IMG/VR virus record: IMGVR_UViG_2718218100_000015
DNA from: a virus
Lineage: Duplodnaviria; Heunggongvirae; Uroviricota; Caudoviricetes
DNA length: 25,384 nucleotides
Strand: one strand, 5' to 3'
Shown here one piece after another: positions 1 through 24,115 of this stretch; positions within the stretch are counted from its first letter, which is position 1, and every line of letters starts with the position of its first letter. The notes below the pieces were generated by a model. The model saw only the letters and a list, made by a program, of their open reading frames with translations, made no database searches and was not told where the DNA came from. A program made the translations under genes and the position numbers.

Positions 1-675
1 ATGTCTGCACCTGCATTGCCTGATGTCAGAACAGTATTTTGATTAATTGCCAGGGTTACAATGGCACAAATGCGGCACAGGAGGAAACGTGGTGTATTTA
101 AATATGGGGTAACTACTTGATTTAAATGGTGCGATAATAGGAACCAATAATCGCCACCAACACAATGATTTTAATACATAAATTAAAATAGAAGATTTAA
201 ACTACACACACCCCTATACACATTGGTGAAGGCGTTCGCTTTCCGCGCATTCTCAAGGCAGAAAAAACTTTTTTTGGGGGAAAACTGTTCATACTACTCA
301 TTGTGTTTTTTTTCATTAATATTCAAAAAGATATGAAATTAACGATTGATAAGAAGTGAACACTTTACTGTTCACCTTGACTGATTAATAAGTGCATAAA
401 AACCTAATTTTTGAGCACGGAAGGTATTTGTTCCTTACCCCATTTTTTCTCTTTAGTCCAGTACAACAAAAAATGCGCCCAACAGAAAACTGTTTTGAAT
501 TTAAATGCAATCGCTTTGTAGTGATTGTAACGTAAGTTGATTTGATGGGTGCGATTTTGTTTAGCGATAATGGTATGTTGTAAAAATCATTTCGTTGCAA
601 TAAAATTGCATCGCTACATTTTATAGACAATATCAATTAAATTTTAATACTCATTATTAATTTTGAGGCTAACAA

Positions 676-1632
676 GTGACTAGTTATTCAAACTTTTCCA
701 ATCAAATAAAAGAAACCATCAATAATAAATTCGATCATGAAATTCATGATTGGGACATTATAAAAAACTCAATCACAACTTTAACAAATAAAAATATCCA
801 TGGTGCAGGTAGAAATATCGTTGATTTTATAGATTTAGGTAACTGGGATTTTATTTCAAACTTTTCCTTTGATGACTCTACAAGAAGACTTGAATTAGAG
901 TGGCACCCCAATGATAAATTCCATATATATATTGAGTCCGTTGTGTTTGTCGAGTTTAATGACACTATATATGCTTTCTTAAAGGGATACTATCACAATC
1001 AGTTATCTCTAAATAGAATATATAATACAAAATGCTCTTCATGTTCATTTGAAAACTCAGGTTCTTATATGGTAGACGTTTATAGAACGGTTAAAAGAGT
1101 AAATGAGACAATCCAGACCCCAAATATAAATTGCTATACTACATGTATTTTAACAAGGCCCGCAAATGGTCATGTTACATCTACAGGCTTCTCACGAAAC
1201 CTCATGGATGCGATAAATATTTCATTAGCAGAGCACAAAATAGCCTCTTTACATAATGAAGTCATGAGTATTGAGGAATATGATCGTGATTCTTTACAAG
1301 AGAAAGGAAATACTGCCAGGAGATATTTAGAATATATTCTCATGCTTGTTAATATTCGTATAATGCATTTAAACAACGTTCAATACCAAGAGCAAATGCT
1401 AGGTAGTTTAGTTTCTGTTATTGAGGCTCTGGACTATGAACCATTAATGAAAAATGATGTTGAAATTACAAAGGACATCCTTAATGCTTGCAGCCACCAC
1501 GGGGGGGTTAGAATTGAAAAGAAAGATGTAATTTTTTCTTTGGAAGTTATTGAAAACTTAATTAAAGCCATAAAGAAAACCGACATAAATAAATTACAAC
1601 TCGATGGGATGTTTAAATCAATTCAAAAATAA
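676..1632 (+). CDS. hypothetical protein, AT-rich accessory gene (318 aa), function unknown
   Basis: Long ORF with GTG start at 676 and GAGG 8 nt upstream; about 30% GC versus about 50% for the neighbouring primase; convergent with primase. Contains an Rx4H-like string (TRPANGH), which is weak evidence only. Confidence 0.5.
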   Translation: MTSYSNFSNQIKETINNKFDHEIHDWDIIKNSITTLTNKNIHGAGRNIVDFIDLGNWDFISNFSFDDSTRRLELEWHPNDKFHIYIESVVFVEFNDTIYAFLKGYYHNQLSLNRIYNTKCSSCSFENSGSYMVDVYRTVKRVNETIQTPNINCYTTCILTRPANGHVTSTGFSRNLMDAINISLAEHKIASLHNEVMSIEEYDRDSLQEKGNTARRYLEYILMLVNIRIMHLNNVQYQEQMLGSLVSVIEALDYEPLMKNDVEITKDILNACSHHGGVRIEKKDVIFSLEVIENLIKAIKKTDINKLQLDGMFKSIQK

Positions 1633-1764
1633 ACATCATCTAACAATGAATTAGATGCATTTTCCGCTGACGCCTTAGCATATAACTTTTAAATTTTATC
1701 GATATATATTTTGAGATAATTTCCTGTAGCGGATTTAAGACCGGCACAGCCGGTCTTAGGTCAG

Positions 1765-4098
1765 TTATTTCGCTGCAAACTCATCGCATTTTGGCAACCA
1801 GTCAGCATTGCTTTCCTCTCTTAGGGCCAGATTAGTCTGCATTCCTTGATTGGTCCGTCGTTTCTCATACTGCAGCCCATATTCCTTGAGCATTAACGGT
1901 AGCCCCTTGCCAAACATGGTCAGACTGAGCGTATTTTTATAGCCGTTAGCCTCCATGTAGACCAGATAGGCATGGTAGAGGTAAGTTCGAGGCTGACGTG
2001 GAACAATATTAGCGTTCCCCATAAACATGCCCGTGGTGTCAGGTAGGACCTCAAGGTAGCCGCAAAAATCAAAAGCTGAATCAGCATCACGTTTGATGGT
2101 GAGCGCTTCATCGGAGTTCTGCTGTGACTGAAGCAATGTCCTGGCACTCATTGGGTCGCTGAAACGCTGCATAAGCTGGCGAACAATCACCGCTAGCTCA
2201 CTGGCAATTTTCTCTTTGAGCTGGGTATCGCGTTCCTCCGGGGCTATCTGGTCGGGGAAATGCAGGATCACCCTTCGGCGTGAAACTCCACCACTACGAT
2301 CAGTGAAGCGCATCGGATTATTGTTCACAGCCAGGATGACCGCCGGGATGTGGGTTGAATAGGCGTTCTGATATTTGGGATCAACGGATACCGCATCGCC
2401 GCCAGTGATGGCTTTTAGTCCGGCCCCGTCACCGCTCCACTTTTCCTGGTCGGGAAGTCGAATCAGTGAAAAACCTATTAACGCAGCTCGTTCTCTTGGC
2501 GACTCAAGCATTTCAATGGTTGCCGAGGTCGCGTTATCTTCACCCGCCAGCATGGTTGCTATTTCAGCAAGAATACTCTTTCCACTTCCGCCAGGGCCAG
2601 TGACCTCCAGAAACAGCTGCCAGTCATAACGGTTAGCCAGCACCATAAACAATGCAGCCAGAATAATGTCCCGTTTTTCAGGATTAAAACCTGCGGCACG
2701 ATCCAGCCAGCGCCAGAATGCCGGGGCATGGGTTTCCAGTGACTCACCGTCAACGGGCTGCGTGTAATCCACCTCGCACAGCGTACGTAACCAGTGCTTC
2801 TTATCGTGCGGGCTGAACAATCCTGTCCGGGTATCGAGCACACCGTTGCGAAATCCGATAAGTTGCCGCGCCGGATTCTGCTGTTGCGGAACGATCAGTT
2901 TGAGGGTTTCCACGAGAGACGCAATTTTCGCGGATGAAAAAGGTGCGTCGAGGCGCTGAAACAGCGCAGCGACATCACGGGCAAAATCGGCGTAATAGAT
3001 AACTTTCCAGGCCCCCGCCTCATAGCGTGAAAGGAGCTGCCCGTTCGGGTCTACTGCCAGTGAATTTTTATAGTGATCCACTACCCTCTGCGCTTTTTCG
3101 CTGACGCTCAGCGCGGTAAATTCAGCTTCGCTCATTGTGTCGAAGGGGCTGGCAACAGCTGGTTTTATTACTTCATGAATTGCATGCCGGGTGGCTTCTT
3201 CGCCGTTTTGCGTGAATGCATCGTTCCAGTCACCAAACACAGGCGGGAGCGCCATTGTGCAATTGCAGGCCCCGGTAACAGCTGCGCCCCTTGTTTGCCC
3301 CGCACCGTTGAGATCGCGGTCAGCAGCAATAATTATCTGGTGCGTTGGGTACTCACTGCAGGCAATGCTCGCCAGGGAAAGGAAATTGACGGACGAAAAG
3401 GCCACCATGACAGCATCGCCAGTCAGATAGTTGATAGTAAGTGCGGTGGCATATCCTTCCGCTATCCAGAGCCGTTTGGCTGCTTTGGCAGTACCTTCAA
3501 CCAGGTAAAAGGCATTCTTAACCTGACCGCCTTTAAGGAAGCATTTGCCCCCATTAGCGTTGATTAACTGCAGATTTACCAGCTCTCCATCTGCATACAA
3601 TGGAACGACAAGATCTCCCGCGCGAAATGCCACACCACCGACTTTATGCATAGCGGTTAATTCCCGGCAAGGCAGTGCAGGAAACCCTTTACTCGTCAGA
3701 TAGGCATTGCCAGTGGTCTGGCGGGACTTATCAAACAAACGGGCAGCCAGCACTGCTGCAGCTTTTCTCCCGTCCTCTTTTTCAGGAGAACCAGATTCAA
3801 GCATTCCCTGAGATACTGGCAGCAGGTTTCCGATAATGCCGTTTATTCTGTCTGCCGCTTCACTAATGCCTACATCCAGTACTTTACTTACAAGCGCCAG
3901 GCCATCACCTGCCCCGCACTGGTTACAGAACCACGTTCCCCGCCCTTCCTGGTCATCAAATCGAAAGCGGTCTTTCCCGGCACAGACCGGGCAGGGCTGG
4001 TGCCGATTTTTCAGTACATTTACGCCCAGCGCAGGTAAAATTCTTGACCAGTGACCCCGAGCTGCTTTCTCAGCCTGGCTAACTTTCATTCCTGACAT
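1765..4098 (-). CDS. P4 alpha-like DNA primase/helicase (777 aa)
   Basis: N-terminal zinc-finger CPVCAGKDRFRFDD and CNQCG, Walker A VTGPGGSGKS in the C-terminal helicase part; ATG at 4096-4098 preceded by AAGGAGG (rc of 4107-4113); length equals P4 alpha. Confidence 0.9.
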   Translation of the reverse strand: MSGMKVSQAEKAARGHWSRILPALGVNVLKNRHQPCPVCAGKDRFRFDDQEGRGTWFCNQCGAGDGLALVSKVLDVGISEAADRINGIIGNLLPVSQGMLESGSPEKEDGRKAAAVLAARLFDKSRQTTGNAYLTSKGFPALPCRELTAMHKVGGVAFRAGDLVVPLYADGELVNLQLINANGGKCFLKGGQVKNAFYLVEGTAKAAKRLWIAEGYATALTINYLTGDAVMVAFSSVNFLSLASIACSEYPTHQIIIAADRDLNGAGQTRGAAVTGACNCTMALPPVFGDWNDAFTQNGEEATRHAIHEVIKPAVASPFDTMSEAEFTALSVSEKAQRVVDHYKNSLAVDPNGQLLSRYEAGAWKVIYYADFARDVAALFQRLDAPFSSAKIASLVETLKLIVPQQQNPARQLIGFRNGVLDTRTGLFSPHDKKHWLRTLCEVDYTQPVDGESLETHAPAFWRWLDRAAGFNPEKRDIILAALFMVLANRYDWQLFLEVTGPGGSGKSILAEIATMLAGEDNATSATIEMLESPRERAALIGFSLIRLPDQEKWSGDGAGLKAITGGDAVSVDPKYQNAYSTHIPAVILAVNNNPMRFTDRSGGVSRRRVILHFPDQIAPEERDTQLKEKIASELAVIVRQLMQRFSDPMSARTLLQSQQNSDEALTIKRDADSAFDFCGYLEVLPDTTGMFMGNANIVPRQPRTYLYHAYLVYMEANGYKNTLSLTMFGKGLPLMLKEYGLQYEKRRTNQGMQTNLALREESNADWLPKCDEFAAK

Positions 4099-4656: not shown

Positions 4657-5210
4657 AGCGTCACCTCCCCGGCAGGCAGCCGTGCAGAAAGGGAGAGTAC
4701 ATAATCTCGGACTAGCAAACGGCGCGCGGAACGCTCATCGCAGGAGACAGTGCGAAGCATACAGATGCGGGGGTGAGTGTCAGCACGGCGGATTGCGGCA
4801 AACACAAAGACATATTGCGGGTGTGACGGGGTGAGGATTGTAGCCATGATGGCAGCCTCCAATAAGTAGCGGTTATTGCTACCACCGGAAACGCCAATTT
4901 CACTGGTGGCAGCCCGAACGGGGTTGGCGTAACCGGCCTTATTGGAAACCGGCCAGCCCGAAGGCTGCCCCGCCCGGACTACCATTATCTCGATAGAACC
5001 ATGGTGTAAGCATAAACACCACAGCCCTGAAAATGGTTGTGCCTGAGCTACGACGTAAAAAAAGACGCAAGGGGCGTCAATTGTCGCCAATAAGTTATAC
5101 GGAACGCCAATTCCGGCTGCCGATTTTGCGACAGCGGAAAAACTATACCTGGAAATGACGACAGTAAGCAAGCCAGAATAAAGGTATTTAATGTATGCAG
5201 GTATCATCAT
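4653..5210 (-). CDS. doubtful ORF (185 aa); may be partly non-coding P4-type immunity/leader region
   Basis: Start overlaps the alpA stop (ATGA), but composition is atypical (Cys/Trp-rich, low complexity) and the 5' part (about 4860-5200) looks like structured or intergenic sequence. Confidence 0.25.
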
Positions 5211-11658: not shown

Positions 11659-12840
11659 TTAACTCCTTTTTAGTCTTTCAAATATCAAATTACTGTACCA
11701 GTCCATCATAGACTTCCTTCCACTAAAATATTGAGCATGGTTATAAGTCCCCCTAATAGAATTTTTATCTACATGAGCCAACTGGATTTCAATCCAAGCA
11801 CTCTCAAAACCTTGCTCATGCAGGATTGTAGAAAGGGTATGACGAAAACCATGTCCAGTGACTTTTCCTCCATACCCAATACGCTTAATGGCTTGATTTA
11901 TACTCGCTTCGCTCATTGGCCTATTCGGATCGTTCCGCCCTGGAAAAACATAACGATAGTTCCCTGTCATGATCTTGAGTTCATTGAGTAAATCTACCGC
12001 TTGAGATGATAAGGGCACAAGATGTGGCCTACGCATTTTCATCCTTTCAGCAGGAATTTCCCAAATAGCGTTATCCAGATCAAATTCTTGCCATAATGCC
12101 GCGCGTAATTCGATGGTTCTCACACCCGTAATCATCAGTAATTTCGTGGCTATCTGGACAAGCTTACTCCCGGAGTAACCCTCTAAGGCACGTAGAAAAT
12201 CAGGTATCTCATCAGCTTTTAGGAATGGGAAATGATTGGATTGGTGTACTTCGAGAGCGCTGGAGAGCTCAGCCGCAGGATTGTACTCCGCCCTACCCGT
12301 TGCAATTGCGTAGCGAAACACTTCGGAGCAACGCTGCCGCACTTTGCGCATTTTCTCCAACGCACCACGTTTCTCAATTTTACGCAGAACGTTCAGCAGC
12401 TCTAGCGGTTTAATCTCTCCCACAGGCCTTGTTCCGACATAAGGAAAAATGTCGTTCTTAAACGCTTCCATGATGTCTGATGCATATCCCGCCGACCATT
12501 TAGCAGATTTAAGTTGATGCCACTCTCTGGCTATCTTTTCGAAGGCGTTCTCTGACTCTGTTTGCATAGCTAGCTTTTGCTCTTTTCGAACCTCACTAGG
12601 GTTCTTTCCTTCTGCCACAAGTTTTCGAGCTTCATCACGACGGGAACGAGCATCGGCAAGGGTGATCGTTGGGTAAACACCAAGCGAGATCATTTTGGGT
12701 TTGCCGGCATAGCGATAGCGGAACCGCCAACTCTTGCTTCCATTAGGTTCTATAAGTAATGACAACCCTAGCCCATCTCCAAATGTATAGGCTTTAGCTT
12801 CAGGCTTAGCGCGGCGAATCTGCATATCGTTTAAAGGCAT
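11659..12840 (-). CDS. int: P4-type tyrosine integrase (393 aa)
   Basis: ATG at 12838-12840 (MPLNDMQIRRAKPEAKAYTFGDG...); catalytic region HGFRHTLSTILHEQG ... IRGTYNH; lies 160 bp downstream of a tRNA-Thr 3' fragment in the same orientation. Confidence 0.9.
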   Translation of the reverse strand: MPLNDMQIRRAKPEAKAYTFGDGLGLSLLIEPNGSKSWRFRYRYAGKPKMISLGVYPTITLADARSRRDEARKLVAEGKNPSEVRKEQKLAMQTESENAFEKIAREWHQLKSAKWSAGYASDIMEAFKNDIFPYVGTRPVGEIKPLELLNVLRKIEKRGALEKMRKVRQRCSEVFRYAIATGRAEYNPAAELSSALEVHQSNHFPFLKADEIPDFLRALEGYSGSKLVQIATKLLMITGVRTIELRAALWQEFDLDNAIWEIPAERMKMRRPHLVPLSSQAVDLLNELKIMTGNYRYVFPGRNDPNRPMSEASINQAIKRIGYGGKVTGHGFRHTLSTILHEQGFESAWIEIQLAHVDKNSIRGTYNHAQYFSGRKSMMDWYSNLIFERLKRS

Positions 12841-13002
12841 GTGTATAGGAATCCAGACCGAACAGGAACATATACACAATCCTATACACATTCAGTACCG
12901 GATTCTACTGGATGGTTACGGACTACTATGGACTTAAAAGAATAAAAAATGTTATAAATCAGAGATTTTATGGACTAATACGGACGTTTGAGGAAGTTGA
13001 GA

Positions 13003-13048
13003 TGGTGCCGATAATAGGAGTCGAACCTACGACCTTCGCATTACGAAT
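13003..13048 (-). other. 3' fragment (about 46 nt) of tRNA-Thr(CGU), thrW-like; att-site remnant, 5' half absent
   Basis: Reverse complement reads ATTCGTAATGCGAAGGTCGTAGGTTCGACTCCTATTATCGGCACCA (anticodon loop through CCA end); sequence beyond 13048 does not continue as D-arm or acceptor stem. Confidence 0.75.
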
Positions 13049-13249
13049 TATAAGAATCCGCTTCTAATTCAAAGCATTACCCCATCAACACTGCGCTCAC
13101 ACGTCCCACCACATCAAAACATGTAAAGCCTTGCAAGCCATTGCGAGGCCTTATGTGTCTCAGTTTTGTCCCACCTTGTATTACGACTTGCATAGCCAAT
13201 GAAGATAAACGTGACGACAAACGGCGCAGCAGTCTTCTTTTCTTTCACG

Positions 13250-16755: not shown

Positions 16756-16821
16756 GGTAGATCTCCCTGACAAAAGCAGGAATGATGCCATTTGCTCGTT
16801 ATTTCTGCATTTTCATAAACG

Positions 16822-16852
16822 TTGGTTTGGGAGAAGGTGCTCCAGCTATTGG
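16822..16852. repeat. left crossover site (inverted repeat) of the Pin invertible segment
   Basis: ttggtttgggagaaggtgctccagctattgg is the inverted complement of 18574-18603 with one single-base indel; lies 67 bp upstream of the pin start. Confidence 0.6.
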
Positions 16853-17067
16853 CGTTCCGTTCTTCTGGCGTCCGCTGCAATGCCAAATACTGTAATCGAC
16901 AGCTGGTCCTGTATGGTGTTTTGAAGTTCAACGGCGCGAAATTCTCTGCCACTGATTATCCTGTGCTGGCGAAAGTGTTTCCTTCGCTGGTATTACCTGA
17001 AGCCGCGGTGATTTCATTCGTATCTGGGATGACGGGCGAGGTGCAGACGGTGGTCGCGAATTATTAA
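16822..17067 (+). pseudogene. alternative tail-fibre C-terminal variable module (silent orientation)
   Basis: Frame starting inside the left crossover site encodes ...KFNGAKFSATDYPVLAKVFPSLVLPEAAV..., typical of a tail-fibre tip; would be joined to the constant part after inversion. Confidence 0.4.
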
Positions 17068-17284
17068 GCTGGCAGGCAGCTACAAACTTTTCTCAGTTTG
17101 CCGGAATATAGGCGAAGGTGCGGGACACGCAATTAACTTTCATGATGGCATCGCCGGAAATCAGCCAGGATTTTCACGATTTAATTTCACCAGTAACTCT
17201 GTGGGTGATGGTGTGAATTTTGTTGCAGTCAGACGCGAATATTGCATTTAACTTTCTGGTGAGGCTAAATAATGAAACCTGTTT

Positions 17285-17793
17285 TTGATGAAAATGGCTG
17301 GCTACAGTGCCGGGCGATATGCGTTGTTTTATTATGATGCTGAAACATCTGAGTATACGGGCTGGTCTGATGAATATATTAATACTGGCGTAAGTATGCC
17401 GCCTGTTCCACTGGTATTGACCTGGCGAAAACATTCGGGAAGAGTGGCAGTATTTACAGGTAAGGATGGAGCCATGAAGAAGACCATCGCAATGAGACTG
17501 TTTACTCAATCGAAATGGCGCAGCTGTTACAGTGGATTATATCGGTGCCATCAAAGACGGTTATGTCACGATTTCACCGTTAACGCCATACGATAAATGG
17601 ATGGTGAGAAATGGTGACAGACACTGAGGCACAACACAGTGCCGCAGTAGACGCGGCAGAAGCACAGCGCCAATCACTGATTGATGCAGCAATGGCTTCC
17701 ATTAGTCTGATTCAGCTGAAGTTACAGCCGGACGGAACTGACTCAGGCAGAACAACCCGACTTAACGCCGTGCTGGATTACATTGACGCGTGA
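17285..17793 (+). pseudogene. tail fibre assembly (Tfa-like) gene, frameshifted
   Basis: N-terminal ...FYYDAETSEYTGWSDEYINTG... and C-terminal ...EAQHSAAVDAAEAQRQSLIDAAMASISLIQLKL...TTRLNAVLDYIDA lie in different frames; the expected ...APD(V/I)IW... tail is in yet another frame downstream. Confidence 0.5.
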
Positions 17794-17835
17794 CGGCAAC
17801 AGATACCAGCACGCGCCGGATGTCATCTGGCTGAA

Positions 17836-18247
17836 CTGCCGGAGCGTAGGCCATTCAATATCTGGCGCACCGGAAGTATCGACCAGCTCCAGTGCGTCCA
17901 GATAATCCAGCCACAATTATATTGCGTCAGTTCGTCACCTTTCAGACGACCAATAGCCGCTTTACGGGCCATTGCTTACTGTTCATGTATTCGTTGGCCT
18001 GGTTAATTAGTAGCTGTCTTTCTGATTCAGTAATTTCAATAAGCTCTTCATGCGTGGTGAATATCTGCCACGCAGGCAGCCATCATCTCCGGCAATACGG
18101 ATTTTCCTTGTGCGGTTCAGCCATAAACTCACTGATAATATTTGATTACTTCCTTAGCGTCTGATAAATCCCATCCCTCTGATTATATTTATCAATCATA
18201 TCACAGGAAAAAGCATTATGCCTTGCGCTATAAACATATTCGTCCAT
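17836..18247 (-). pseudogene. second, convergent Tfa-like gene (minus strand), degenerate
   Basis: Manual minus-strand translation gives MDEYVYSARHNAF... from an ATG at 18245-18247 and a C-terminal WLDYLDALELVDTSGAPDIEWP at 17836-17913, with frame breaks between. Confidence 0.3.
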
Positions 18248-18465
18248 ATAAATCACCCTGAATAAAATTACTCACCACAGCCCACCAACTGTAATTCATC
18301 GATACCGTGTCGCTGGTTGATGACGTTCTGTAAGCAGAATTAAAGCGTTAACGTTGGCCTTCTGCAGTCATCACGAACCTCGCCAGCGCCTAAAGGCGCA
18401 CCGCCATCACCAGAATGAGTAAGCATGGCGCAGTCCGCTTTTTGGGAAAGGATGCTGAATGTAAT

Positions 18466-19250
18466 TCATTGTGCGTCGATAATGTCGGCGTAACCGCACA
18501 CGACCATATTGCAGGATTTCCCGTTGAATTCACCATCATACCACTGGCAAAGAGGCATGCCGGACGACCCGCCCAATAGCTGGAGCCCTTCTCCCAAACC
18601 AAGGTTTTGAAGAGCCGTTTTCACCGTGCCGTCCGATTTGATATCGCCAAACGGATTCTTGCGGCTCAGGTATTCAACAGCAAACCCCGATCCCAGCAAT
18701 TCAACAAAACCGGGCAGATCACCATTATCAAGCACATCCCGTTGCGTTTTATCACTTACAAACTGGGCCAGAGCTGCAGCAATAAAGCTGGCCTGCCGAA
18801 TAACCTTATTGACTTGCGCACTGGATGCTTTCCCTGCTGTAAATCCGGATATAAGCGCAGGCAACGCTTCCCATTCCTCCTGCGACATAACATTGGCATT
18901 TCGATCAGTTGCAAACGCTTTAAAGTCATTTTTCGCCATCAGAGTAATACTCCCCATGCCCCTACATCAAAACCACTGATGAATTCGTTATCCATATCAA
19001 AACCAAAAAATTTAGAGCCTTCCGATGGAGTTTCCACCGAAGGTGTTTCAATGCCCCCCGCCCATACCCCGGCGGCTTTTACTGTTAGATACCCCTGTTT
19101 AATTGCCGCAATTAACTCACGCGATACATCTGAAATATCAGTATCAGGAAAGACCCAGACCGATATCGTCATGTCCTGGTTATCGATGTTGGCGATCCGA
19201 CGCATCTGCTCACGGTCAAAGTTAACCATCTGTGCGGCGATGTTTTTCAT
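18466..19250 (-). pseudogene. tail-fibre constant-region fragment fused to the first 21 codons of lambda-type P; internal frame break near 18939-18957
   Basis: ORF 18939-19250 starts MKNIAAQMVNFDREQMRRIAN (lambda P N-terminus) then switches to unrelated sequence; ORF 18466-18957 reads through the right crossover site. Confidence 0.45.
18574..18603. repeat. right crossover site (inverted repeat) of the Pin invertible segment
   Basis: ccaatagctggagcccttctcccaaaccaa; inverted copy of 16822-16852; lies inside the tail-fibre constant-region reading frame (...[12 protein letters not shown]...). Confidence 0.6.
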
Positions 19251-20169
19251 AAATCCACCCCGTAAATCCAGTCAGTGTTTGTCAGGTCGAGTTTTGGTTT
19301 GCTGGCTGTCACGCCTGCCTGTTGCTTGTTACGGTTGATTTCGAGCTGGGTCCACTTGTCGCGGAGTTTGGCCGGACTCAGCACGTTACCGGACCAGAAG
19401 TTGTCCTGGCAGGCCCAGCGGAAAAGCACACACATATCGCGGTGGTTACGTCCGTCACGTTCACGCATCAGGCGGATATCGTTAGCCCACCCAGCAAAAT
19501 TCGGTTTTCTGGCTGATGGCGCGATGGTCTTCACCATGTCAAACATCCACTCTGCGGCGGTCAGGTCTTCTGCTGTTCCCCACTTGCTGCCGCTCTGAAT
19601 TGCAGCATCCGGTTTAACCACAGAAAGATCGTTTTCTGGCTGGTCAGAGGATTCGCCAGAATTCTCGGACGAATAATCTTTTCTTTTTTCTTTTGTAATA
19701 GTGTCTTTTGTGTCCCCCTGTTTTGAGGGATAGCAATCCCCCAATTTGAGGGATAGCAATCCCCCAATTTGAGGGATGTTTTATCCCTCGTTTTAGGGGA
19801 TTTTCCCTCGTTTTGAGGGATACACCATTCTGAGATGTTTTTATTTGGTCCAAACATGCCGCCTTGCTGCTTGATAATATTCATTCTGACGAGTTCTAAC
19901 TTGGCTTCATTGCACCGTTTGACAGGTAACTTTGTAATCTCGCTAAGTTGAGAATCGGTGATTCTGTCCATTGGTTTATTCCACCCATAGGTTTTACGCA
20001 GAATGGCAAGCAGCACTTTAAACTGTCGCTTGGTCAGATCTGCGCCCGAATAAGCCTCAAGCAGCATATTTGATAGTCTGGCGTAACCATCATCGAGATC
20101 TGCCACATTACGCTCCTGTCCGGCAAAGTTACCTCTGCCGAAGTTGAGTATTTTTGCTGTATTTGTCAT
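19247..20169 (-). pseudogene. O: lambda-type replication initiator O, split by a frameshift inside the ori iterons
   Basis: N-terminal ORF MTNTAKILNFGRGNFAGQERNVADLDDGYARL... and C-terminal ORF ...NFWSGNVLSPAKLRDKWTQLEINRNKQQAGVTASKPKLDLTNTDWIYGVDL match lambda O; frames differ across 19742-19787. Confidence 0.85.
19721..19830. repeat. ori-lambda iterons (O-binding sites) with an extra tandem 23-bp copy
   Basis: Five iteron-like units on the minus strand where lambda has four; 19742-19764 and 19765-19787 are identical 23-mers (agcaatcccccaatttgagggat); AT-rich tract follows at about 19670-19720. Confidence 0.8.
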
Positions 20170-20179
20170 AATGACTCCT

Positions 20180-20256
20180 GTTGATAGATCCAGTAATGAC
20201 CTCAGAACTCCATCTGGATTTGTTCAGAACGCTCGGTTGCCGCCGGGCGTTTTTTA
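20180..20256 (+). ncRNA. oop: oop antisense RNA (about 77 nt)
   Basis: gttgatagatccagtaatgacc...gctcggttgccgccgggcgtttttt matches the recalled lambda oop RNA, ending in a GC hairpin plus T6; antisense to the cII 3' end. Confidence 0.7.
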
Positions 20257-20495
20257 TTGGTGAGAATCGCAGCAACTTGTCGCGCCAATCGAGCCATGTC
20301 GTCGTCAACGCCCCCCCATTCAAGAACAGCAAGCAGCATTGAGAACTTTGGAATCCAGTCTCTCTTCCACCTGCTGATCTGCGACTTATCAACTCCCACA
20401 GCTTCCGCTGTCTTCTCAGTTCCAAGCATTGCGATTTTGTTAAGCAACGCACTCTCGATTCGTAGAGCCTCGTTGCGTTTGTTTGCACGAACCAT
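20202..20495 (-). CDS. cII: lambda-type CII transcriptional activator (97 aa)
   Basis: MVRANKRNEALRIESALLNKIAMLGTEKTAEAVGVDKSQISRWKRDWIPKFSMLLAVLEWG...; ATG at 20493-20495. Confidence 0.9.
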   Translation of the reverse strand: MVRANKRNEALRIESALLNKIAMLGTEKTAEAVGVDKSQISRWKRDWIPKFSMLLAVLEWGGVDDDMARLARQVAAILTNKKRPAATERSEQIQMEF

Positions 20496-20574
20496 ATGTA
20501 AGTATTTCCTTAGATAACAATTGATTGAATGTATGCAAATAAATGCATACACCATAGGTGTGGTTTAATTGGAT

Positions 20575-20613: not shown

Positions 20614-20823
<210 letters not shown>

Positions 20824-20911: not shown

Positions 20912-21628
<717 letters not shown>

Positions 21629-21755: not shown

Positions 21756-22612
21756 ATGAAGAAAGCAGCAATTTTAATTGATGCGGGTTTTTTCATGCAG
21801 CGTGTTCATGCTACGCATCGTAAACACTTCGCCGAGCATGAACTGACTGTGCAATGCATAATGAAAGTAATATGGTCAATGGTTCTTTCCCATCTTAATG
21901 GAAAACGTCAATCACAAGAACGTAGGGAACCGCTTGAGCTTTATAGAATTTACTTCTATGACTGTCCACCACTCGACATTCAAACACGCCTTCCACTTCC
22001 TGAGCCTGGCAATAAGACGCCTGGTCGCAAGAATTTCAAACTCGAAAAATCATATATTCTGAGAACGGAGCTGCATGAAGAGTTAAGAAAAACTCGAAAA
22101 ACAGCCTTAAGATTAGGGAATCTTGTTGATAATAAGCGATGGCAACTAACTACATTCTCCCTTGATGCTCTGATGAAAGGAACGAAAAAATGGGATGAAC
22201 TGACAAATGATGTTTTTACTATGACATCAAACAAAAACAAGTTGATATCAAGCTAGGGATGGATATCACGACTTTAGCTTATGAAAAACTTGTTGATGTA
22301 ATTGTCCTTGTTGCTGGGGACTCAGACTTTGTGCCTGCCGCCAAACACGCCAGAATTAAAGGTATTGATTTTATTCTTGATCCACTAAGACAGAATGTTA
22401 CCCCATCACTGTCAGAGCACATTGATGGAGTTCAGTCATACAGCTTGATATCAGGACTTGCCGATGCTTTACATGTTGAGCCAGACCCGGCACCTGACTG
22501 GTGGGAAGATCGAAAAAAAGGCAAGCCTAGAGGAAAAAACAATAGCGGTAAACGCAGGTATGGAAACACTCAAGCTGAGTCTGCAAAGAAACATCAAAGA
22601 AATAAACGATAA
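21756..22612 (+). pseudogene. NYN/LabA-like (PIN-fold) domain protein in the position of lambda rexAB; split into 166-aa and 117-aa ORFs by a frameshift near a T5 run
   Basis: ORF1 begins MKKAAILIDAGFF; the second frame reads ...KQVDIKLGMDITTLAYEKLVDVIVLVAGDSDFVPAAKHARIKGIDFIL; the frames overlap across 22211-22256 with T5 at 22213-22217. Confidence 0.55.
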
Positions 22613-22733
22613 TCCCATCAACCCGGCCACCGAGCCGGGTTTTCTTTGCCTCTCGATCGCCCCACCTAAAAACACATAATGAACCGCCCCGGAAATCCTG
22701 GAGACTAAACTCCCTGAGAAAGAGGTAAACAGG

Positions 22734-23060
22734 ATGACTAAAAATACTCGTTTTTCCCCCGAAGTCCGTCAGCGGGCGATTCGTATGGTTCTGGAAAGTC
22801 AGGATGAATATGACTCACAGTGGGCGGCAATTTGTTCCATTGCCCCAAAGATTGGCTGTACGCCGGAGACTCTGCGTGTCTGGGTTCGCCAGCATGAGCG
22901 GGATACCGGGGGCGGTGATGGTGGGCTCACCAGCGCTGAACGTCAGCGTCTGAAAGAGCTGGAACGTGAAAATCGTGAACTGCGCCGCAGTAACGATATC
23001 CTTCGCCAGGCTTCCGCTTATTTTGCGAAGGCGGAGTTCGACCGCCTCTGGAAAAAATGA
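22734..23060 (+). CDS. IS629 transposase OrfA (108 aa)
   Basis: [60 protein letters not shown]... with HTH and leucine-zipper-like C-terminus. Confidence 0.85.
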
Positions 23061-23947
23061 TGCCACTGCTGGATAAGCTGCGTGAGCAGTACGGGGTCGG
23101 ACCGGTATGCAGCGAACTGCATATTGCCCCGTCAACGTATTACCATTGTCAGCAACAGCGACATCATCCGGATAAACGCAGTGCCCGTGCGCAGCACGAC
23201 GACTGGCTGAAGAGAGAGATACAGCGCGTATACGATGAAAATCATCAGGTGTACGGTGTGCGTAAAGTCTGGCGTCAGTTGTTACGGGAAGGAATCAGGG
23301 TGGCCAGATGTACAGTGGCACGTCTCATGGCGGTTATGGGACTTGCCGGTGTTCTCCGGGGTAAAAAGGTCCGTACGACCATCAGCCGGAAAGCCGTTGC
23401 CGCAGGCGACCGCGTAAACCGTCAGTTCGTGGCAGAACGACCTGACCAGCTGTGGGTGGCTGATTTTACTTACGTCAGCACATGGCAGGGCTTCGTCTAT
23501 GTGGCGTTTATCATTGATGTGTTTGCCGGATACATCGTGGGGTGGCGGGTCTCATCGTCTATGGAAACGACATTCGTGCTGGATGCGCTGGAGCAGGCGT
23601 TGTGGGCCCGTCGTCCGTCTGGCACCATCCATCACAGCGATAAAGGCTCTCAGTATGTGTCACTGGCCTATACGGAGCGACTAAAAGAAGCCGGATTACT
23701 GGCATCAACAGGGAGTACAGGCGACTCGTATGACAACGCGATGGCTGAGAGCATCAATGGTCTTTACAAAGCGGAGGTAATACACCGTAAGAGCTGGAAA
23801 AACCGTGCAGAAGTGGAACTGGCCACACTAACGTGGGTGGACTGGTATAACAATCGACGATTGCTGGGAAGGCTGGGCCATACTCCTCCGGCAGAAGCAG
23901 AAAAAGCTTATTATGCTTCCATCGGAAACGATGATCTGGCAGCCTGA
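23057..23947 (+). CDS. IS629 transposase OrfB (DDE integrase-like catalytic domain), expressed as OrfAB by -1 frameshift
   Basis: ...[31 protein letters not shown]...[11 protein letters not shown]...[19 protein letters not shown]... shows the D, D, E catalytic spacing; overlaps orfA in the -1 frame. Confidence 0.85.
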
Positions 23948-24115
23948 GTTCACAGATAAAACACTCTCCAGGAAACCCGGGGCGGTTCATAACCAATTGT
24001 ATTTATTTTAAAATTAATAGGTGCAACTCACTAAACAACGCAATTCTGATCTCTCGATCACCTCCCAAGCCACACAACCCTGCAAAAAATAAATCTATAT
24101 AAAAAACATACAGAT

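Follow-up and report, generated by a model that had tools for sequence, protein, structure and literature searches.

A 23-bp tandem duplication of iteron 3 in the ori-lambda of the cryptic prophage Sp1 shifts the frame of gene O and is polymorphic in Escherichia coli O157:H7

Background

In lambda and in phage 21 the origin of replication, ori-lambda, lies inside gene O, the gene of the initiator that binds it. Any change in the number of iterons is hence also a change in the coding sequence of O, and the question raised by the locus described here is what a duplicated iteron does to the origin, to the initiator and to the element that carries both. We considered this question for a stretch of 25,384 nt from a tailed virus (Caudoviricetes; IMG/VR record IMGVR_UViG_2718218100_000015), hereafter the window, in which a first-pass annotation, made from the letters alone, had noticed two identical adjacent 23-mers within O.

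Results

The window is the cryptic prophage Sp1

Gene content and junctions identify the window as Sp1 (CP-933H), a cryptic lambda-like prophage of E. coli O157:H7. Precisely, it contains a lambda-type cI-cro-cII-O region and the first 21 codons of P joined to a pin-invertible tail-fibre module, and the element adjoins the P4-like Sp2; the window ends at the stop codon of int, with thrW just outside. Sp1 of strain Sakai matches the window at 100% over O and has the same P::tail junction, which is common to 204 records in 203 genomes, and the same cI-cro-cII. In the Sakai annotation the element is named 'prophage Sp1, lambda-like phage', it adjoins thrW, and O (ECs_0277), P (ECs_0279) and int are pseudogenes; the TW14359 copy is labelled by PGAP (NCBI) as 'replication protein, frameshifted'. 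With respect to Sakai, the copy in the window has IS629/IS1203 and about 558 nt more of the gene coding for an NYN domain, a structure common to only five complete genomes.

The remnant of P (19187..19250, minus strand) consists of the first 21 codons of the gene. The homology to P stops at 19187 and is followed by a DUF2612/baseplate-like fragment (ORF 18939-19250 has a weak DUF2612 match) and then by the tail-fibre genes; no Q, lysis, head or tail-shaft gene is present in the Sp1 annotation, the late genes being all gone. On the other side of O there are, on the minus strand, cII (20202..20495, 97 codons within ORF 20202-20555, as in the Sakai annotation) and cro (20614..20814, from the ORF list and the Sakai annotation), and, on the plus strand, an intact lambda-type cI repressor of 237 aa (20915..21628), which controls the pR transcript reading cro-cII-O. 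A segment of 197 nt, running from the last part of cII through oop into the first part of O, is 100% identical to lambda 38563-38759. By its position in lambda, we take the gene of the oop antisense RNA to lie at 20180..20256 on the plus strand, with its promoter pO in the first codons of O.

In Asadulghani et al. 2009 (PMC2669165), the replication of Sp1 is scored as 'D' (defective) and its morphogenesis and lysis functions are all given as absent, while the first two functions in the list are scored as '+' (conserved) and the third as 'D'. According to the same report, mitomycin C did not lead to amplification of Sp1 DNA on microarrays, and the residual early genes of Sp1 were clearly induced by it. 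The pseudogene status of O and the replication defect of Sp1 are already on record, and the lesion is an ordinary one; we found no description of the 23-bp iteron duplication itself in the literature.

A second copy of iteron 3 in ori-lambda

The plus strand of the window carries two identical head-to-tail copies of the 23-mer AGCAATCCCCCAATTTGAGGGAT, one at 19732-19754 and the other at 19755-19777. The identity with period 23 covers 19722..19777 (no strand being assigned to the array), that is two units of 23 nt plus 10 nt of a third period; Tandem Repeats Finder scores this array with 2.4 copies, 100% matches and a score of 112. By chance, an exact adjacent repeat of this length would be expected about 4^-23 times per position, a value that excludes coincidence. 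The first-pass annotation was right about the two adjacent copies, but it had placed them at 19742-19787, 10 nt too far to the right.

When the origin was aligned with those of lambda (NC_001416) and phage 21 (OL657228), the sole difference across the iterons was one 23-nt insertion, and the duplication is a single 23-nt insertion also with respect to the thrW prophage of E. coli O55:H7. Four O-binding iterons are annotated in each of the two phage records, whereas the window has five, so the count of five units against four in lambda, which had been put forward from the letters, holds in the alignment. All the iterons are on the minus strand. Iteron 1, ATCCCTCAAAACGAGGGA (19804..19821), is the same as the annotated lambda iteron 1, and iteron 2, ATCCCCTAAAACGAGGGA (19784..19801), and iteron 3, ATCCCTCAAATTGGGGGA (19760..19777), match the sites annotated in lambda. 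They are followed by the extra copy, here called iteron 3' (19737..19754), which lies 23 bp from iteron 3 and was not found in lambda, phage 21 or any phage record searched, and by iteron 4, ATCCCTCAAAACAGGGGGA (19713..19731). Four of the five are identical to annotated lambda sites, and the spacings are 20, 24, 23 and 23-24 bp. The AT-rich unwinding region (about 19670..19712, minus strand) is the same as in phage 21 and is one base off lambda just past the AT-rich tract.

We considered as an ori-lambda any array of at least four iterons of 18-19 bp, of the ATCCCTCAAAACGAGGGA type and spaced by 20-24 bp, with an AT-rich tract adjoining the last iteron and with a location within O, between its N- and C-terminal coding parts. 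Such an array is what the window contains, the iterons (19713-19821) being inside the O frames (19247-20169). The inserted unit corresponds to iteron 3 plus the 5-bp spacer TTGCT. The sequence ATCCCTCAAA opens both iteron 3 and iteron 4, which have their first 10 nt in common, at a distance of 23 bp, so that a 10-bp direct repeat brackets the duplicated unit.

The window has, from iteron 3' through iteron 4 into the AT-rich region, exactly the unit that lambda has from its iteron 3 through iteron 4 into that region. As cited in PMC7466680, the two AT-proximal iterons with the AT tract are the minimal unit for unwinding and for replication in vitro. The origin DNA is, by this prediction, probably still a competent O-binding array, and it is plausible that the rearranged origin may still bind the N-terminal domain of O, as had been proposed in the first-pass annotation.

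The duplication splits O, in an element that has already lost P

O is frameshifted because the origin sits inside the gene and an insertion of 23 nt is not a whole number of codons. The alignment to lambda O confirms this reading, which had been made from the letters, and locates the break of the frame after S141. The two ORFs into which O had been said to be split both exist, one aligning with the N-terminal and the other with the C-terminal part of lambda O. The first (19561..20169, minus strand) codes for 202 aa, of which the first 141 are identical to lambda O and the last 61 are out of frame; the second (19247..19759, minus strand) codes for 170 aa, corresponds to lambda O residues 132-299, is open and is 99% identical to lambda O, and its only start is a mechanical TTG within the repeat. 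Where an initiator O is encoded by a single ORF of about 299 codons that links the DNA-binding half to the P-interacting C-terminal half, the window has two ORFs.

The N-terminal fragment matches Phage_rep_O (Pfam PF04492) with an E value of 1.9e-36 and 124.9 bits (cut-off 28.7); the match involves residues 22-115 and profile positions 2-95 of 95, and the domain is complete. On this domain content, the DNA-binding half of O is intact and the C-terminal half, although open, is predicted to be cut off from translation. The O fragments carry no mutation besides the duplication: once the insertion is set aside, O of the window and O of phage 21 agree at all 918 positions. Sequence comparison gave no solved structure of O, and no Rfam match was obtained in the O/ori/oop region.

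It had also been suggested that the frameshift inactivates the replication of the prophage. This is true of O itself, but as an explanation of the replication defect it is redundant: P is cut after 21 codons in every Sp1 copy examined, including those with an intact O, and this already abolishes replication. The frameshift is therefore not what prevents Sp1 from replicating; with or without it replication is dead, because P is truncated, int is broken and the late genes are missing.

The duplication is confined to copies of Sp1 and one mosaic contig

The O region with the duplication (941 nt) was found at an identity of at least 99% in 198 records of complete E. coli genomes, and among the matches listed (n = 40) all were at 100%, Sakai and EDL933 included. 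This number of complete-genome records rules out that the duplication is an assembly artefact. The duplication is missing from all 159 phage records that contain this origin; the highest identity among them is 91.2%, which corresponds to the 23-nt gap. The junction between the two copies gave 0 matches in representative genomes, one for each of 185,579 species, and 0 matches in metagenome contigs.

In IMG/VR the exact junction is present in seven contigs, six of which are plain fragments of Sp1. The seventh (L005) has flanks of Sp15, the Stx1 prophage of Sakai, and an intact P around a core of Sp1, and was evaluated as an independent prophage with the duplication. In a site-by-site comparison, alleles of Sp1 and Sp15 alternate along it, together with a homopolymer insertion and a substitution that are both unique to it. 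We regard it as probably a draft-assembly chimera, or at most as the result of gene conversion between resident prophages. The comparison across related prophages that the first-pass annotation had called for thus restricts the duplication to Sp1 copies and to this mosaic contig. The thrW prophage of O55:H7 strain CB9615 was considered as a possible ancestor of Sp1 and is not a simple precursor; it is a complete lambdoid prophage with an intact O of four iterons and an intact P, but its immunity region is a different one and its O is closer in sequence to that of lambda.

Four- and five-iteron alleles coexist in O157:H7

To count the alleles, we searched the complete E. coli genomes with the Sp1 sequence deprived of one copy of the unit and spanning the Sp1-specific P::tail junction. 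A query of 101 nt is unusable for this count, because on four-iteron genomes BLAST joins two overlapping pieces. The one-copy construct matched at 100% in 12 O157:H7 genomes (272, JEONG-1266, Rafaela_II, SS52, ECP19-798, 3-5-1, Al Ain, 08-3918, Z1812, 26_141088, UTME-4 and PNUSAE151637) and at 99.7% in 7386WT, for a total of 13 genomes with four iterons. In the rows that follow these 13, the identity falls to 97.9%, the value corresponding to the presence of the duplication. In the eight of the 13 whose annotation was examined, O is annotated as an intact gene of 900 nt (WP_000185505.1, 299 aa). The split is hence of about 198 records with the duplication (about 94%) against 13 without it (about 6%), and a three-copy construct gave no full-length match that would indicate a triplication. 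The lesion was previously annotated as a pseudogene; the polymorphism between four and five iterons in Sp1 is an addition of this work.

Three structural types of Sp1 were distinguished by the NYN-domain gene and the IS element next to it. Type A, with the NYN-domain gene and IS629/IS1203, is represented by the window, which is the copy of this type whose iterons were read, and it has the duplication. Type B has the same IS with the adjacent 558 nt deleted, and includes TW14359 with the duplication and SS52, 272, Rafaela_II, 3-5-1 and 08-3918 without it. Type C, which has no IS, includes Sakai with the duplication and ECP19-798, Al Ain and JEONG-1266 without it. Within the 10 kb of Sp1 shared by these copies there are three informative SNPs. 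The first groups Sakai, ECP19-798 and Al Ain; the second separates the window, Sakai, Rafaela_II, ECP19-798 and Al Ain from SS52, TW14359, 272, JEONG-1266, 3-5-1 and 08-3918; the third marks 272, 3-5-1 and 08-3918. The four-iteron allele is therefore found on at least four local backgrounds of haplotype and structure, two of which also hold strains with the duplication. SS52 and JEONG-1266 belong to lineage I/II, together with TW14359, EC4115 and SS17, and JEONG-1266, EC4115 and SS17 were typed as clade 8 (PMC5552260, PMC7289925); in TW14359, EC4115 and SS17 the duplication is present.

Whichever the direction of the change, several events are needed, and the locus is therefore homoplastic. 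The direction itself rests on three SNPs, on one character of IS insertion/deletion and on the allele frequencies, and the IS marker is weakened because the excision of IS629, whose footprints here are of 390, 387 and 391 nt, can itself recur. We favour, as the simplest account, a recurrent change by repeated precise loss of one copy, because the duplication is found in all three structural types and in about 94% of the genomes, and because losing one of two tandem copies, for which 33 nt of homology are available, is far easier in mechanistic terms than creating the second copy from 10 nt of homology. A repeated gain of the duplication from a four-iteron ancestor is the less favoured direction.

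Discussion

Comparison with known origins

The origins of lambda and phage 21, also located inside O, agree with that of the window in the sequence, order and spacing of the iterons, in the AT-rich tract and in the position. The origin of the window differs from them in a fifth iteron, an exact copy of iteron 3 added to the usual four, and in that O is out of frame. The cis-acting ori- deletions r93, r96 and r99 of lambda were selected in the laboratory and are in frame, so that O is active and the origin is dead. They likewise are small rearrangements between iterons, produced by the same kind of misalignment; in the window, by contrast, an out-of-frame duplication abolishes O and has probably left the origin DNA intact.

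The number of iterons has been raised by duplication also in Stx phages. Sp15 of Sakai has six iterons and an O gene of 939 nt, and 933W and P27 have six iterons and an O that is 13 residues longer, as given in PMC7466680. The iteron consensus is the same in these phages and in the window, but in the former the gain is of 39 nt (13 codons), at the end of iterons 1-2 and in frame, with a functional origin and a functional O, whereas in the window it is of 23 nt, at iteron 3, and the frame is destroyed. In viable phages the gains of iterons are in frame (+39 nt), and the gain of 23 nt is found only in a prophage that is already without P.

Origin and fate of the duplication

The reading that we prefer, with a probability of about 0.88, is that the duplication arose by slippage, shifted the frame of O, persisted in Sp1 as neutral decay and is sporadically lost with precision. 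Slipped-strand mispairing, or unequal exchange, between the 10-bp repeats ATCCCTCAAA of iterons 3 and 4 would duplicate the unit formed by iteron 3 and the 5-bp spacer and would leave five regularly spaced iterons; a tandem duplicate is unstable, and the same slippage in reverse would remove one copy exactly and restore the frame, giving rise to the about 6% of genomes with four iterons. The footprint of slippage is seen directly in the sequence, and we infer from it the mechanism. The duplication, the frameshift, the domain content of the fragments, the truncation of P and the polymorphism are observations, whereas the neutrality of the lesion is assumed as most likely: the lesion would be one neutral step in the decay of the prophage, and its persistence would have been possible only because O is no longer of use to the element, with P deleted, int broken and the late genes gone. 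Some residual function of the early block of Sp1 may exist, the O fragments being otherwise unmutated and the early genes being inducible by the SOS response.

Such a function could be that of a decoy, in which the block made of cII, oop, the N-terminal part of O and the iterons titrates or blocks O, or the origin, of lambda-type phages that enter the cell or are induced in it, the extra iteron acting as an additional site. On plasmids, the 'inhibition phenotype' needs oop transcription and iterons 3-4 (Hayes et al. 2012, PMC3349717), and Sp1 keeps the block corresponding to lambda 38359-39168 that is sufficient for it (PMC3349717), with oop/pO and the 5' end of O at 100% identity to lambda and with the N-terminal domain of O intact. 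Moreover, the early genes of Sp1 are induced by mitomycin C (PMC2669165), and the iterons and the O N-terminus of Sp15, the resident Stx1 phage, are nearly identical to those of Sp1. The published effect was nevertheless obtained on high-copy, rop-deleted plasmids (PMC3349717), while the block of Sp1 is single-copy, unamplified, chromosomal, controlled by cI and provided with an extra iteron; and, according to PMC2669165, the same cell supports the induction and good replication of Sp15 and Sp5. The duplication is also dispensable, as it is missing from 13 genomes, and retention in a young clonal lineage is not evidence of selection. We consider a decoy role improbable on this balance, and we judge no better the more elaborate proposal in which the 23-bp unit would be a recurrent, reversible length switch within an SOS-inducible decoy block directed against lambda-type replication, either of superinfecting phages or of the resident Stx phages, with five iterons and a truncated O as the favoured 'defence' state.

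That the repeat is a contingency locus selected to toggle full-length O is very improbable, even though the copy number of one or two sets the reading frame, both states are natural and present on several backgrounds, and neither allele of O has decayed further. Full-length O would have no partner, P being deleted in all the Sp1 copies examined, those with four iterons included; only two states were found, without a triplication; a two-copy repeat of 23 bp switches far more slowly than the classical contingency loci of simple sequence; and the 94:6 split is what sporadic loss would give. We give as little credit to a firing of the five-iteron origin in trans, by O and P of a co-resident lambdoid phage, which would amplify the neighbourhood of thrW. 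The minimal unit of lambda is present in the form of iterons 3' and 4 with the AT-rich region, origins with six iterons function, and Sp15 provides a closely related O and a lambda-type P; but lambda O is unstable and acts mainly in cis, and, in PMC2669165, Sp1 is unamplified after mitomycin C while Sp15, Sp5 and their flanks are amplified. 

An error of sequencing or assembly, in the duplication or in the four-iteron alleles, is still harder to accept. The mosaic contig L005 resembles a draft chimera and, among the four-iteron genomes, 7386WT is only 99.7% identical; on the other hand, an array of 56 nt fits within a typical sequencing read, the duplication recurs in 198 complete-genome records, Sakai and EDL933 among them, and the twelve remaining four-iteron assemblies come from different submissions and are exact to the base. 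Least credible of all is a recovery of O by ribosomal -1 slippage on the downstream A-run (AAG AAA AAA GAA in the shifted frame), giving full-length O with 8 additional residues. As the insertion of 23 nt puts the ribosome in the +1 frame, a -1 slip would restore the frame, and we infer that the run of six A located 40 nt past the repeat could serve for it; yet the heptamer is outside the canonical X XXY YYZ register, and a full-length O would still be without P.

Conclusions

As it stands, the finding matters little in itself, as it concerns an ordinary mutational mechanism in a known pseudogene. It gives an account at the level of the base pair of why O of Sp1 is annotated as a pseudogene, and it indicates that calls of a 'pseudogene' or of an 'intact' O in close O157:H7 relatives differ for a trivial reason. 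Being a homoplastic length polymorphism, the duplication is unsuited as a stable phylogenetic marker in O157:H7. If the interference with other lambda-type phages were true, products of prophage decay would be linked to the control of Stx-phage replication. More generally, Sp1 shows, in a clean natural case, how an origin is constrained by lying within the gene of its own initiator: as the sequences compared here would predict, living phages can change the number of their iterons only by multiples of three bases.

Relatives of the O gene

When the 23-bp duplication is removed, O of Sp1 (window 19247-20169) becomes the O gene of phage 21 at 918 of 918 nucleotides, and it is nearer to this gene than to O of lambda. 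Such complete identity points to a module that was shared very recently. According to its sequence record, phage 21 comes from a Paris sewer of the late 1950s.

In the O157:H7 relative O55:H7 strain CB9615 (locus L004, 12635-45001), a full-length lambdoid prophage occupies thrW, the same site as Sp1. Its O is intact, with four iterons, as are its P, Q, lysis, head and tail genes; its repressor differs from that of Sp1. Sp15, the Stx1 prophage of strain Sakai (locus L012, 1645-2583), has a six-iteron origin, in which the additional 39 nt preserve the reading frame.

The IMG/VR contig L005 (UViG 2541047164_000016) joins elements of Sp1 and Sp15: at 11985-13112, an intact P and flanks of Sp15 type surround an O core of Sp1 type that includes the 23-bp duplication. 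This contig further carries one unique substitution and, at codon 3 of O, a 1-nt insertion within a run of A. Either the contig is a chimera of draft assembly, or the O gene of one resident prophage has been converted by that of the other.

Structure and variation of Sp1 copies

Downstream of O, only 21 codons from the start of P remain, and they continue in frame into a DUF2612/baseplate-wedge-like protein, of which the ORF contains 82 residues (window 18939-19250, minus strand). This ORF is followed by tail-fibre, tail-fibre-assembly and pinE genes; an e14-like invertible tail-fibre module is joined straight to a lambda-type early region. The pin-invertible segment (window about 16810-18570) lies in opposite orientations among O157:H7 genomes, the alignments of the window with SS52, JEONG-1266 and several IMG/VR contigs being inverted, which suggests an invertase that is still active or was until recently.

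The form of Sp1 in the window differs from that of Sakai at 21756-22612 and at about 22670-23980. Of a NYN-domain gene pair with two ORFs (166 and 117 aa, with the Pfam NYN match on the second ORF), the window retains about 558 nt that Sakai lacks, and the pair is adjoined by an IS629/IS1203 insertion with an ALIL pseudoknot (Rfam, window 23015-23131). This structure is common to only five complete genomes (AUSMDU00002545, ERL04-3476, ERL05-1306, NZRM4165 and F8492), each at 99.7-99.9%. The Sakai and SS52 forms look like successive derivatives, produced by a deletion next to the IS and then by excision of the IS. In IS-less copies, the remnant of a hypothetical gene (the ECs_0273 counterpart) measures 391 nt in JEONG-1266 (L015), 390 nt in ECP19-798 (L019) and 387 nt in Al Ain (L021), and these unequal footprints suggest that IS629 was excised independently.

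A G/A polymorphism also segregates among O157:H7 copies of Sp1 at window 20861 (position 19140 of locus L017), in the OR operator/promoter spacer between cro and cI. The base is A in the window, Sakai, Rafaela_II, ECP19-798 and Al Ain, and G in SS52, TW14359, 272, JEONG-1266, 3-5-1 and 08-3918; in strain 272 the neighbouring base is changed as well.

In Sp2, the P4-like prophage next to Sp1, Rfam matches to C4 antisense RNA (window 4902-4989, 84 bits) and isrK (window 5058-5135, 71.9 bits), both on the minus strand, mark the P4-type immunity region.

Predicted recognition of Sp1 iterons by Sp15 O

The N-terminus of Sp15 O differs from that of Sp1 and phage 21 O at few positions, among them the counterparts of the published Gly17Glu and Leu37Ile. 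Judging from this similarity, the O protein of Sp15 should recognise the iterons of Sp1.
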